A stretch of 64,000 bases of DNA. Origin: Lachnospiraceae bacterium (lineage in GTDB: Bacteria > Bacillota > Clostridia > Lachnospirales > Lachnospiraceae). The position numbers and the translations under genes were made by a program. The stretch is from positions 38,551 through 102,550 of the forward strand of contig JAFYGJ010000014.1 in the NCBI GenBank assembly GCA_017543275.1, given 5' to 3'. The notes beneath the pieces are model-generated. The model was not told the origin of the DNA. It did no database searches and was given only the letters and a program-made list of their open reading frames with translations. Below are positions 61,059 to 64,000 of this stretch, in pieces; position 1 is the stretch's first letter; the number at the start of each line of letters is the position of its first letter.

Positions 61059-61079
61059 ACTGAATTGAGTTTGGGACAG

Positions 61080-62780
61080 ATGCCTTTTCGGGAGCGGCAG
61101 AAAGACTGGTCCCGGGGGTGTCTGTCCCCTGTTTTCTCGGAGAACAAAGAATTGGGAAAGCTTGCAAAAATACCGGTCGTAGTGGGTGTGACCGGTCATC
61201 GGGATTATCTGCCGGAGGAACGGGAGAAGCTTGCGGATCTTGTGCGAAAGGAACTTCGCGCGATCCGGGAGCGCTGTCCGCATTCGCCGATGGTGCTTCT
61301 CACAAGTCTTGCGGAAGGCGCGGATCAGTTGGCGGCAGAAGCGGCGCTTTCGGAGGGCTATGCGCTTTCGGTTCCATGTCCGATGCCTGTCCCGGAATTT
61401 GAAAAGGATTTTACGGCGGATGTGCTCCGGAATTTCCGTACGCTTCTCACGAAGGCAGATGAGGTGTTCTGCGTCCCGCTGGGGAGCCCGGAGAACATTG
61501 CGGACCCTTCTGATTTTTCAGACCCGGAAGCCCGGAACCACGCCTACCGTACGGCGGGCATCTATGTTGCGGAGCACTGCCATGTGATGCTTGCGCTCTG
61601 GGACGGAAATCCCGGAAAGCCCATGGGCTGCGGTACTGCGGAAGCAGTTGATTTCAAGCTGAACAGTGTCCGGGATGAACCGGACCTTCGGAGCCTGCAG
61701 GCACCGGAAGGATTTGTGATTCAGATTGAGACCAGGCGGAAGAGCAGAGAGGCGGGTTTTGCAGAATCCGGCCGGATCCGGCGCTTCGGGGATCAGAAGG
61801 AGCTCCGGGAAATTCTTCGAGAAACGGAACGCTTCAACCGGGACGCGGAGCGGGATGCGGTATCGCGAAAAGCAGTTTTGGCAGAAGAAAGTACCGGAGG
61901 GATGCTTGGGCGAATCGCTGCTGTCTACGATGCAGCGGACCGGATGAGTGTGCAGAATGCAAAAAAGCACCGCCTGACGATCGGACTGATCTCCACGGCG
62001 GCGGCGCTCTTTACGATTTCTTTTCTTTTATACGACGAGATGTCGCTGTACCGGCTGATCCTTCTGTGCGGGATTCTGATCGGAGCACTTTTTCTGATCA
62101 GTCTTGTGGCACGGCGCTCCGAATTTCATGAGCGGTATATCGAATACCGTATGCTTGCCGAAGGGCTTCGCGTACAGCAGTTCCTGCTCCGGTCCGGCGT
62201 CAGTGAATCCGTCGGGGGACAGCTTTCCTGGGCTGTCCAGACCCGGCTCCCCTGGGTCAAGGAGGCTTTTTTCGCGCTGACAATCGGGGATGCCGCGATG
62301 GAAAATGATCATTCGGCAACTGCTTTCTGCGAGGATCAGCGTCTCTACCATGAGAAAGCGCTGCAGAGGACCCGAAAGCAGCTTCGCCGCAACGACCGCA
62401 TCATGAAAACCGCCCTGATTCTGACGCTTCTTTCCTACATTGGCGCTCTGTTTTTCGAAATTACCTGGGGCGGCCTTCTCGGCGGGGAACCGGTACTCTC
62501 GGCTAATACCCTTGAAATGCTCCGGACCGTCCTGAAAATCATTCTGGGATCGCTGTCTGCGGCGACGCTGTTTGCCGGCAGCTATTACGGGAAAATGTCT
62601 CTCGACGAACTCCTTTCAGATCACGAGCGCATGATCCGTCTCTTTGAGACGGGCGAGCATGAGCTGGAACGTGTCGGGGAGAGCCCGGCGCTTCTTCTCC
62701 GCCTGGCCCGCGAAATGCTGAATGAGCATGCGCGCTTCTATGCATGCCAATCGCAAAACCGGCCTGACGTGAGCCTGTAG
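61080..62780 (+). CDS. Fusion protein: YpsA-like SLOG Rossmannoid N-domain plus two 2TM hairpin modules (SLATT/LSDAT-like); candidate conflict-system sensor-effector
   Basis: The open frame runs 61065-62780. Possible starts are TTG 61065, ATG 61080 and TTG 61152 (the last 8 nt after GGAGA). Motifs: VVGVTGHRDY, LTSLAEGADQLAAEAAL, VPCPMPVPEFEKDF and HVMLALWDG. TM helices lie at about aa 304-323, 328-349, 446-466 and 486-506. The coding call is solid; the domain call is an inference from memory of the family. Confidence 0.7.
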   Translation: MPFRERQKDWSRGCLSPVFSENKELGKLAKIPVVVGVTGHRDYLPEEREKLADLVRKELRAIRERCPHSPMVLLTSLAEGADQLAAEAALSEGYALSVPCPMPVPEFEKDFTADVLRNFRTLLTKADEVFCVPLGSPENIADPSDFSDPEARNHAYRTAGIYVAEHCHVMLALWDGNPGKPMGCGTAEAVDFKLNSVRDEPDLRSLQAPEGFVIQIETRRKSREAGFAESGRIRRFGDQKELREILRETERFNRDAERDAVSRKAVLAEESTGGMLGRIAAVYDAADRMSVQNAKKHRLTIGLISTAAALFTISFLLYDEMSLYRLILLCGILIGALFLISLVARRSEFHERYIEYRMLAEGLRVQQFLLRSGVSESVGGQLSWAVQTRLPWVKEAFFALTIGDAAMENDHSATAFCEDQRLYHEKALQRTRKQLRRNDRIMKTALILTLLSYIGALFFEITWGGLLGGEPVLSANTLEMLRTVLKIILGSLSAATLFAGSYYGKMSLDELLSDHERMIRLFETGEHELERVGESPALLLRLAREMLNEHARFYACQSQNRPDVSL

Positions 62781-62801
62781 GAGGGGAACCTGTCCCCGCG
62801 G

Positions 62802-63995
62802 TTACTTTTTATAGTATTCGTGCACAAGCGAACGGTATCCGAGGGCTTTCAGGTCCTCATAACTTACCTCAAAGCGGGATTTTCGGTGGCTGCCCGAGAG
62901 AAGATACCGGATGCAGTCCTGCGCGTACTGATCGATGAGGTGCAGGCTTTCTGTTGTGTTGATCACCGAGAAAAACCAGCTGCTCCACGAGAGGTCGTTT
63001 CCTTCGGAACTCTCCAAAAGCTTACGGTTGAAAATACGGATAAATGCGGCGGCGGCCTTCCGGGGTTCGACGCCGTTTCGTTTGTGCCAGCGCGCAAGTC
63101 CGTCGCGTTTTCGTCGCATTTTCCCCTTCAGTTTCTTCAGCGTTGCCGGAGCGATATCGACGCGTTTTCCGACGATCGAAAAGCCGAGGAAGATGAAGCC
63201 CTGGTCCGGGGAAGAAAAGCATTCCTTATCCGGGTTCATTGTCAGACCGTAGCCGACGAGCGAAGCGCGGATTTCAGCCGCCCGCTCTCGACATACATCT
63301 TCGTTTTCCCCGAAAAGAATCATATCGTCCGAATAGCGGACATAGAGCACACCCTGTTCTGAAAAATGACGGTCCAGATCCCGCAGGTACAGGTTGGCAT
63401 AGAAGGCGGAGAGAGGCGTTCCGGCCATGATACCTTTATGAGAATCCAGAACAGGCTGTCCCTTTTCCAGAACCCGGGTCTCTGTGAGAAGTCCCGTAAG
63501 GAACGTACAGAGCGCCGGATCATCCGAAAGCACATCCCGAAGCATCGGGAGAAAACGGTCCACCGGGATTGAATTGAAGTAATCGTGGATATCTGCCTTA
63601 TAGGAATACAATGTGTGGAGATTCCGTATCCGAATCAGATGCCGGACTGCATCCTTTGCATTTCGGCCCGGACGGAAGGAATAGAGATTCTCCGAAAAAA
63701 GTCCGTCGTATTTCCGGAGAATCAGCCAGGTCAGAAGCTTCAGAACCGTGTTTTCCGGCTTCGGATAGATATAGACGGTCCGTTTCTTCTGAGATCCGAG
63801 TTTGCTGATGACAGCCCTTTTCGGAAGCGGGAAAGGCTCGCCGGCCTGAATTTTTCCTGCAGGCGCAAGATATCGCTTCTCCCGGACAAAGGCCGAAAGC
63901 TCCTCGGAAAAAGCGGTGTTTCCGACGAGCGATTGTTTGTATTCGAGAAAAGCTTCCCAGGTTTTCTGATCGGAAAGCCGTGAAAGCAGCGACAT
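62802..63995 (-). CDS. Stand-alone reverse transcriptase (397 aa, YSDD catalytic motif) with a helical thumb-like tail; the subfamily is unresolved
   Basis: RT motifs occur in order: SFRPGRNAKDA, ADIHDYFNSIP, GIMAGTPLSAFYANLYL, VRYSDDMILFG (YSDD at 63324-63335), LTMNPDKE and FIFLGFSI. The ATG at 63995 is only 5 nt from the window edge, so the start and upstream elements cannot be verified. Confidence 0.85.
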   Translation of the reverse strand: MSLLSRLSDQKTWEAFLEYKQSLVGNTAFSEELSAFVREKRYLAPAGKIQAGEPFPLPKRAVISKLGSQKKRTVYIYPKPENTVLKLLTWLILRKYDGLFSENLYSFRPGRNAKDAVRHLIRIRNLHTLYSYKADIHDYFNSIPVDRFLPMLRDVLSDDPALCTFLTGLLTETRVLEKGQPVLDSHKGIMAGTPLSAFYANLYLRDLDRHFSEQGVLYVRYSDDMILFGENEDVCRERAAEIRASLVGYGLTMNPDKECFSSPDQGFIFLGFSIVGKRVDIAPATLKKLKGKMRRKRDGLARWHKRNGVEPRKAAAAFIRIFNRKLLESSEGNDLSWSSWFFSVINTTESLHLIDQYAQDCIRYLLSGSHRKSRFEVSYEDLKALGYRSLVHEYYKK

Positions 63996-64000
63996 CTTGC

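Follow-up and report, generated by a model that had tools for sequence, protein, structure and literature searches.

A UG26-class reverse transcriptase and a fused SLOG-SLATT protein lying tail-to-tail in a Lachnospiraceae genome probably form two separate conflict-system units

Introduction

Do a reverse transcriptase (RT) and a predicted membrane effector encoded tail-to-tail form a single defence module, or do two separate systems simply adjoin? The question is raised by the end of a 64,000-nucleotide (nt) stretch of a Lachnospiraceae genome (assembly GCA_017543275.1, contig JAFYGJ010000014.1, positions 38,551 to 102,550; the whole stretch is called the window below). There, a minus-strand RT gene converges on a plus-strand gene for a protein that carries a SLOG domain followed by four transmembrane (TM) helices (SLOG-4TM). 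The original prediction joined the two as a candidate abortive-infection module in which an RT-made signal is read by the SLOG domain, with the caveats that the genes might be parts of two units and that further genes or RNA might lie past the window end. We conclude that, very probably, two independent conflict-system units adjoin tail-to-tail here, in this lineage only: a UG26 RT unit and a one-protein SLOG-SLATT sensor-effector. An RT-to-SLOG pathway would have been new; the evidence instead shows two ordinary genes of known kinds, and the main value of the analysis lies in correcting that reading.

Results

The locus comprises the following features, and the open reading frame (ORF) list and the sequence confirm the predicted coordinates and the 21-nt tail-to-tail spacing:

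62802-63995, minus strand: UG26-class (class 2 UG/Abi) reverse transcriptase, 397 amino acids (aa); PADLOC RT_UG26, Pfam RVT_1
62781-62801, no strand: gap separating the convergent stop codons, exactly 21 nt, GAGGGGAACCTGTCCCCGCGG
61152-62780, plus strand: SLOG-4TM (SLATT) gene from its likely start, TTG 61152, 542 aa; homologue alignment, predicted local distance difference test (pLDDT), GGAG
61065-62780, plus strand: longest ORF version of the SLOG-4TM gene, 571 aa, TTG start, with an ATG at 61080
61113-61131, plus strand: terminator-like hairpin and T-run, 3' of the GH3 stop (61058) and 5' of the likely SLOG-4TM start; consensus scan, a pattern match only

Relatives of the two genes do not occur together. 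Co-occurrence was scored in the best 80 of 438 UG26 relatives, and in the best 80 of more than 569 SLOG-SLATT relatives from metagenomes together with 10 look-up loci. The 80 UG26 loci come from other genomes (Clostridia, Lachnospiraceae and Ruminococcus of rumen and gut), with RTs that share 57-74% identity with that of the window. Searches by tblastn, blastp and a family hidden Markov model (HMM) on six-frame translations found no SLOG-SLATT relative within 10 kb of the UG26 RT in any of these loci (0/80), and tblastn, blastp and HMM searches found no UG26-like RT at the SLOG-SLATT loci (0/90). A conserved neighbourhood of the kind that a single RT and SLOG-2TM module implies was thus not found, and the proposal of an RT-made signal read by the SLOG domain falls with the pairing. 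The caveat that two separate units might be present is borne out by co-occurrence and synteny.

In three syntenic genomes (L005, L008 and L011), counterparts of the window's GH30 and GH3 genes converge directly on the RT across gaps of 169, ~11 and 139 nt, with nothing between. L005, whose RT is 74% identical, also has helix-turn-helix and ABC-transporter genes on the far side, as in the window. Because these relatives keep the RT module without SLOG-4TM, we interpret the SLOG-4TM gene as having inserted between the sugar-hydrolase operon and the RT specifically in this lineage.

Two observations concern these junctions and flanks. The 169-nt GH3/RT junction of L005 (L005:9197-9365) holds a long perfect hairpin with A- and T-run flanks (AAAAAACCTCCCCCAAAAGAGAC...GTCTCTTTTGGGGGAGGTTTTT) that resembles a bidirectional terminator; in the window this position is taken by the inserted SLOG-4TM gene. 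Separately, TIR-domain genes occur at a distance of a few kb from the RT in 2 of the 80 UG26 loci (L014:6571-9687 and L026:4562-6747), where SLOG-4TM is absent; this is probably coincidental clustering of defence genes.

Profile and motif comparisons identify the minus-strand ORF as a full-length UG26-class RT. It matches the PADLOC profile RT_UG26 over residues 1-396 of 397 (E 3.2e-164), the next-best RT profile being RT_UG27 (E 1.2e-32), with the Drt2 and Drt9 profiles at E 2e-20 and 6e-24. Pfam RVT_1 (E 1.3e-18, aa 69-274) is the sole Pfam domain and no domain is fused to it. The box Y221-S-D-D224 is invariant across 21 homologues, in agreement with the predicted stand-alone RT with a YSDD motif, and RT homologues number 2253. 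UG26 is a small class 2 UG/Abi group of 35 members, 9 of which have a COG2852/YcjD-like associated gene, and its defence prediction was graded ‘inconclusive’ (Mestre et al. 2022, PMC9226505).

Only 5 nt of the window lie upstream of the RT start; we therefore read the sequence past position 64000 from contigs L002-L004, which are 98% identical to the window. In these contigs a spacer of 240 nt separates the RT from an upstream, co-oriented ORF of 183 aa, which matches the PADLOC profile RTasCOG2852 over its full length (E 2.5e-56). The corresponding features are:

L003:4363-4914, up to ~920 nt past position 64000, co-oriented with the RT: COG2852-like gene (PADLOC RTasCOG2852)
L003:4223-4330, ~100-210 nt past position 64000, minus strand: RT-5 RNA (Rfam RF03026), covariance model 91.5 bits
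L005:7779-7884 and L031:9864-9968: RT-5 RNA at other loci

Of the 80 UG26 loci, 77 have a COG2852-like homologue immediately upstream of the RT, and two of the three loci that lack it are contigs starting at the RT. The spacer separating the two genes always measures at least 153 nt and is much better conserved than either protein. It matches Rfam RT-5 (RF03026) with 78-92 bits in L003, L005, L006, L031 and L061 (gathering score 45.7), and RNAalifold predicted 34 pairs in it, 24 of them with compensatory changes. Using a local profile, we detected the RT-5 element in all 81 RT loci that have upstream sequence, with zero matches in the window and in all SLOG-SLATT loci; it is missing from the window because the window ends so close to the RT start. 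No gene downstream of the RT is conserved among the 60 loci with at least 2 kb of downstream sequence. Given these conserved upstream partners and the lack of a conserved downstream gene, we define the RT unit as the COG2852-like gene, the RT-5 RNA and the RT, running off the window end. Further RT-associated genes or non-coding RNA (ncRNA) past position 64000, raised as a caveat at the outset, are thus present in the extension.

RT-5, an orphan motif, belongs to the ‘RT motifs’ that Weinberg et al. 2017 (PMC5737381) detected in the vicinity of RT genes. Mestre et al. 2022 (PMC9226505) described ncRNAs for UG2, UG3+UG8, UG27 and UG28 and none for UG26, so the link of RT-5 to UG26 may be unreported. 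A text search for the RT-5 motif in the literature covered here returned no match.

Several features of the RNA were noted in passing. The conserved element is longer than the 104-nt Rfam RT-5 model (alignment A3, columns 63-72 / 255-264; for example L003:4123-4362). RT-5 is enclosed by an outer 10-bp stem (GCAGAAAGAGAA/UUCUCUUUCUGC) that shows compensatory changes and is followed by a U-run; together these resemble an intrinsic terminator. Co-variation of the invariant blocks GCCUGCG and CGCAGGC, both shown as unpaired in the Rfam consensus line, was seen in L061 and L023 and suggests a pseudoknot in RT-5. At one locus (L029:7519-9959) both the COG2852-like gene and RT-5 are found downstream of the RT and on the other strand. 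There, RT-5 keeps to the 3' side of the COG2852-like gene and not to the 5' side of the RT, an arrangement that hints that RT-5 is transcribed with, or right after, the COG2852-like gene.

SLOG-4TM belongs to a family with other company. The family comprises 962 clusters at E <1e-5, with proteins of ~530 aa, mostly from rumen and gut Firmicutes samples (Clostridia, Lachnospiraceae and Ruminococcus). In its usual loci the gene has one to three TIR-TM-LRR or TIR-TM-WD40 genes at its flanks. Directly upstream of it lies a gene for a ~630-aa protein with an HD-like motif (LFHDIGYPFE), in which a C-terminal RyR domain was detected in 10 of 24 members. Among the neighbour proteins, 17 have Pfam TIR_2 and 7 have ThsB_TIR. 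TIR-profile matches occur in 18 of the 26 SLOG-4TM loci with at least 10 kb of flank, often with two or three TIR genes per locus, and the remaining 8 are solo. The TIR profile used here was reseeded, as a version built from the TIR-WD40 cluster alone missed the TIR-LRR type. In one locus, L174, the upstream neighbour of the SLOG-4TM gene is an ion-channel/RyR protein. Judged by gene content, SLOG-4TM with TIR and RyR proteins constitutes a multi-gene Thoeris-like locus that is unrecognised by PADLOC 2.0. Examples, among L085-L171 and beyond, are:

L088:1202-9641, multi-gene TIR/RyR/SLOG-4TM locus
L085:8001-17593, multi-gene TIR/RyR/SLOG-4TM locus
L173:5188-9590, multi-gene TIR/RyR/SLOG-4TM locus
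L174:3895-7059, multi-gene TIR/RyR/SLOG-4TM locus

None of these partners accompanies the gene studied here. Searches with tblastn (24 representatives), three TIR HMMs and a cluster-0 HMM found no TIR gene and no cluster-0 partner in the 64-kb window, from which RyR and LRR partners were likewise absent.

The SLOG-4TM protein is divided as follows, with residues numbered on the long ORF:

61170-61799, plus strand: YpsA-like SLOG (Rossmannoid) predicted sensor domain, aa ~36-245; Foldseek, sub-threshold Pfam YAcAr, motifs
61929-62180, plus strand: SLATT/DUF4231 module with the first TM hairpin, aa 289-372, TM helices aa 303-324 and 325-352; Pfam DUF4231, hydropathy, model helices
62400-62585, plus strand: second helical hairpin, not detectably SLATT, aa ~446-507, one strongly hydrophobic and one weaker helix; model and hydropathy

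Fold and motifs both support a YpsA-like SLOG fold for the N-terminal domain. In a Foldseek search of the PDB with an AlphaFold model built from 26 homologues (pLDDT 85.4, predicted template modelling score (pTM) 0.85), the top match was Bacillus subtilis YpsA (2nx2; E 2.9e-4, all 178 target residues aligned, 17% identity). Further top matches were DprA, ShosA, LOG-like proteins, a MoCo carrier protein, TM1055 and the SLOG domain of ThsA, all of them SLOG members. Pfam YAcAr, a SLOG family, matches aa 42-101 at E 2.9e-5 and 24.3 bits, below its gathering score of 28.2, and matches 11 of the 26 family members at E <0.01. Residues G41, G44, R46, A83/G85/D87, P106, F116, H171/H173 and A177-L-W-D-G181 are invariant or nearly so among the 26 homologues. 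The family motifs G-x-T-G-H-R, E-G-A-D-Q, A-L-W-D-G and G-C-G-T-A-E are strongly conserved, as is the membrane region. The YpsA-like assignment of the original prediction is upheld by the structural match and by these residues. From the modelled fold and the conserved G-x-x-G and G-x-D motifs we infer that the domain binds a nucleotide-derived ligand; the YpsA clade has been linked to NAD/ADP-ribose (PMC6459960).

The C-terminal half agrees only in part with the two SLATT hairpins proposed earlier. Pfam DUF4231, of the SLATT clan, matches aa 289-372 at 26.5 bits, above its gathering score of 24.7, and matches 20 of the 26 family members. NCBIfam SLATT_1 matches weakly (19.6 against a cut-off of 41), so that SLATT membership is marginal in NCBIfam. 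In Burroughs et al. 2015 the SLATT name reportedly derives from an association with SMODS and SLOG domains. Four helices are modelled, of which three are strongly hydrophobic (aa 303-324, 325-352 and 446-469) and the fourth (aa ~480-507) is weaker. In the second hairpin the AF2 model places helices H418-467 and H480-507, with hydropathy above threshold at aa 446-469 only. Thus, the first hairpin stands as a SLATT module, and for the second a Pfam scan of aa 380-571 gave no match. We also considered two tandem SLATT modules and rejected this arrangement, as hhalign of the second hairpin against the first gave a probability of 0.75% and no SLATT profile matched the second.

Both genes are of conflict-system type, as originally predicted. 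PADLOC 2.0 gave no match to the SLOG-4TM protein, and an exact-sequence look-up of the 571-aa ORF also returned none.

The start of the SLOG-4TM gene is probably TTG 61152 and not 61065 or 61080. The aligned homologues begin at residue 30 of the long ORF, which corresponds to this TTG, a GGAG motif lies 9 nt 5' of it, and residues 1-28 of the long ORF have pLDDT <50 in the AlphaFold model. The terminator-like hairpin at 61113-61131 falls within the N-terminal extension. Because this hairpin follows the GH3 stop and a GGAG precedes TTG 61152, the 566-571-aa ORF probably has a spurious 29-aa N-terminal extension. Gene callers start the gene at ATG 61080, and cluster P0121 was used for its relatives.

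Positions 1-61000 of the window are housekeeping in character and encode GH3, GH5 and GH30 hydrolases, ABC transporters, pyruvate kinase, two-component regulators and SPFH proteins. A Pfam and PADLOC survey of 43 window ORFs found housekeeping genes and the RT only. PADLOC matches to ‘mad3/mad8’ were rejected as defence genes, being generic ABC ATPases. An Rfam scan of the window gave no match, and the rest of the window yielded no other specific match to defence profiles. Since the surroundings are housekeeping genes without such matches, the RT and SLOG-4TM genes are not part of a larger defence island.

Discussion

Each of the two genes has usual partners of its own, and we consider it very likely that they represent two independent units brought side by side in this lineage. 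Unit 1 would consist of the UG26 RT together with the RT-5 RNA and the small COG2852-like (Vsr/PD-(D/E)XK-type) protein, both encoded upstream and co-oriented. From DRT2 and DRT9, which share its RT class and likewise have an adjacent structured RNA, we infer that the RT probably synthesises DNA on infection, with RT-5 as its scaffold or template. The small COG2852-like protein may serve as accessory or effector.

Unit 2 would be SLOG-4TM itself, a predicted sensor-effector in a single protein, with a YpsA-like SLOG domain as the predicted binding site of a nucleotide-derived ligand. The usual TIR neighbours of the family suggest that the signal could be derived from NAD+ or ADP-ribose. Ligand binding would lead the SLATT-type region to disrupt the membrane, with growth arrest or death of the infected cell. 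The solo protein studied here probably responds to a signal whose source is encoded elsewhere in the genome, or acts without needing a dedicated neighbour. In Thoeris, SLOG domains of ThsA bind TIR-made cyclic ADP-ribose (cADPR) isomers, the membrane effectors of type VII are SLATT proteins switched on by cADPR, and a ‘type III Thoeris’ has been reported that combines several TIR proteins with a SLOG effector (bioRxiv 10.64898/2025.12.03.692087). The TIR/RyR context of the SLOG-4TM family may or may not be this type III.

Several points weigh against the reading of two independent units. RT and SLOG-4TM adjoin stably in no fewer than four metagenome samples of this lineage (L001-L004), which leaves a small probability for a lineage-specific functional link. 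UG/Abi RTs sporadically recruit SLATT proteins, as in UG28 (7/124), UG17, AbiA and UG23 (PMC9226505). Co-occurrence was judged on the best-80 samples of each family. The share of long-flank SLOG-4TM loci with TIR matches (69%) is approximate, as the iterated TIR profile may have drifted (from 38 to 54 matches in one round). Phage defence by UG26 and by the SLOG-4TM family is a prediction from sequence, and the ligand of the SLOG domain, the use of RT-5 as template and the function of the COG2852-like protein are likewise deduced.

Alternatively, SLOG-4TM may be what is left of a TIR-based (Thoeris-like) system after loss of its TIR genes. It would then have no immune role and be kept by chance or co-opted, for example for nucleotide-gated membrane signalling downstream of the sugar-utilisation operon. 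We regard this as unlikely. The TIR, RyR and LRR partners are indeed absent across 64 kb, and the gene directly follows GH3 with no recognisable promoter of its own. About 30% of the long-flank family loci are solo too, one of them (L172) amid arginine-biosynthesis genes, and YpsA itself serves a housekeeping function in Bacillus, in cell division (PMC6459960). Against these stand an intact ORF with every family-invariant residue kept, the terminator-like hairpin separating GH3 from SLOG-4TM, and the possibility that TIR genes sit elsewhere in the genome. Compared with the 98%-identical L003 copy, the ratio of nonsynonymous to synonymous polymorphism (pN/pS) is 0.14 for SLOG-4TM, 0.10 for the RT and 0.07 for GH3, and because of this value we conclude that the SLOG-4TM gene is maintained by selection.

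That the RT and SLOG-4TM form one abortive-infection module, in which an RT signal read by the SLOG domain opens the membrane effector, possibly after a lineage-specific recruitment of a SLATT protein by UG26, appears very improbable. Stop codons 21 nt apart, the same arrangement in four samples of one lineage, purifying selection on both genes and the recurrence of SLATT proteins as partners of other UG/Abi RTs (PMC9226505) would all be consistent with such a module. The evidence against it is the zero co-occurrence in both directions at profile sensitivity, the syntenic relatives that have the RT module without SLOG-4TM, the universally conserved partners that the RT already has, and the TIR and RyR proteins that are the usual partners of the SLOG-4TM family. 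In addition, the two genes are not co-transcribed, because they are convergent. A more specific version, to which we give extremely little credence, is that the UG26 system of this lineage captured an orphan SLOG-4TM as an extra effector, whose SLOG domain, elsewhere tuned to TIR signals, senses an RT-5-templated product or a released nucleotide. If true, the capture would be a cross-wiring of RT-based and TIR-type immune signalling.

There is a negligible chance that the RT is part of a mobile retroelement (group II intron, retron or diversity-generating retroelement (DGR)) reaching past the window: its homologues carry the NCBI name ‘group II intron reverse transcriptase domain-containing protein’ and it matches TIGR04416 and the retron St85 RT model weakly, but at 97.8 bits against a cut-off of 300 and 53 against 235, RT_UG26 fits it over its full length (E 3e-164), Rfam scans of the window and the extended loci found no intron or retron RNA and RT-5 only, and the module occupies one fixed, syntenic place on the chromosome in several species. 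Group II intron, retron and Abi models were all rejected for the RT, with scores far below their cut-offs, and the group II intron origin offered originally as an alternative is dropped; this score-based exclusion covers group II introns and retrons, no dedicated search for a DGR template/variable repeat pair having been made.

We therefore return to two adjoining units, all parts of which are of known kinds: a UG26 RT with its COG2852-like gene, an RT-5 RNA, a SLOG domain and a SLATT module. Mildly new are the near-universal triad of RT-5, UG26 and COG2852 and the TIR/RyR context of the SLOG-4TM family. The orphan Rfam motif RT-5 is tied approximately one-to-one to UG26 RTs and their COG2852-like partner, which gives a compact three-part system that is testable like DRT2 and DRT9. 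The SLOG-4TM family is a candidate fused sensor-effector for TIR-made signals.

Comparison with known systems

The RT unit resembles the UG26 group as described (PMC9226505; PADLOC) in its full-length RT profile match, its length of ~400 aa, the lack of a fused domain and the COG2852-like gene immediately upstream. It differs from the published UG26 set, in which 9 of 35 members have the associated gene, in that the COG2852-like association is near-universal here, with RT-5 between the genes. As for other instances of the RT-5 motif (RF03026; PMC5737381), the covariance model matches in the spacer upstream of the RT; unlike the 104-nt Rfam model, the conserved element here is longer, is enclosed by an outer stem and U-run, and lies outside the window. 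DRT2 (UG2) and DRT9 (UG28) share the RT class and a conserved structured RNA adjoining the RT gene. They belong to other RT groups with other RNAs and lack the extra small protein, and the UG26 module is known here from sequence alone.

An RT beside a SLATT-type membrane protein recalls UG17 with its SLATT partner, and the sporadic SLATT partners of UG28, AbiA, UG23 and UG3+UG8. In UG17-type RT/SLATT systems, however, the association recurs across genomes, as opposed to 0/80 here, and the SLATT protein of the window has its own SLOG sensor.

SLOG-4TM is like Thoeris in several respects. A SLOG sensor is found in type I ThsA (SIR2-SLOG) and in type III, a SLATT effector is found in type VII ThsH, and relatives of SLOG-4TM adjoin one to three TIR-domain genes. 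Unlike in Thoeris, the TIR gene is absent from the window, and the predicted sensor and membrane effector are fused in one protein. The closest structural match, B. subtilis YpsA (2nx2), is the YpsA clade's founding member, and SLOG-4TM has its G-x-D/E signature (G85-A-D87). YpsA is a stand-alone, soluble protein of cell division, whereas the SLOG domain of SLOG-4TM, at 17% identity, is fused to four membrane helices.

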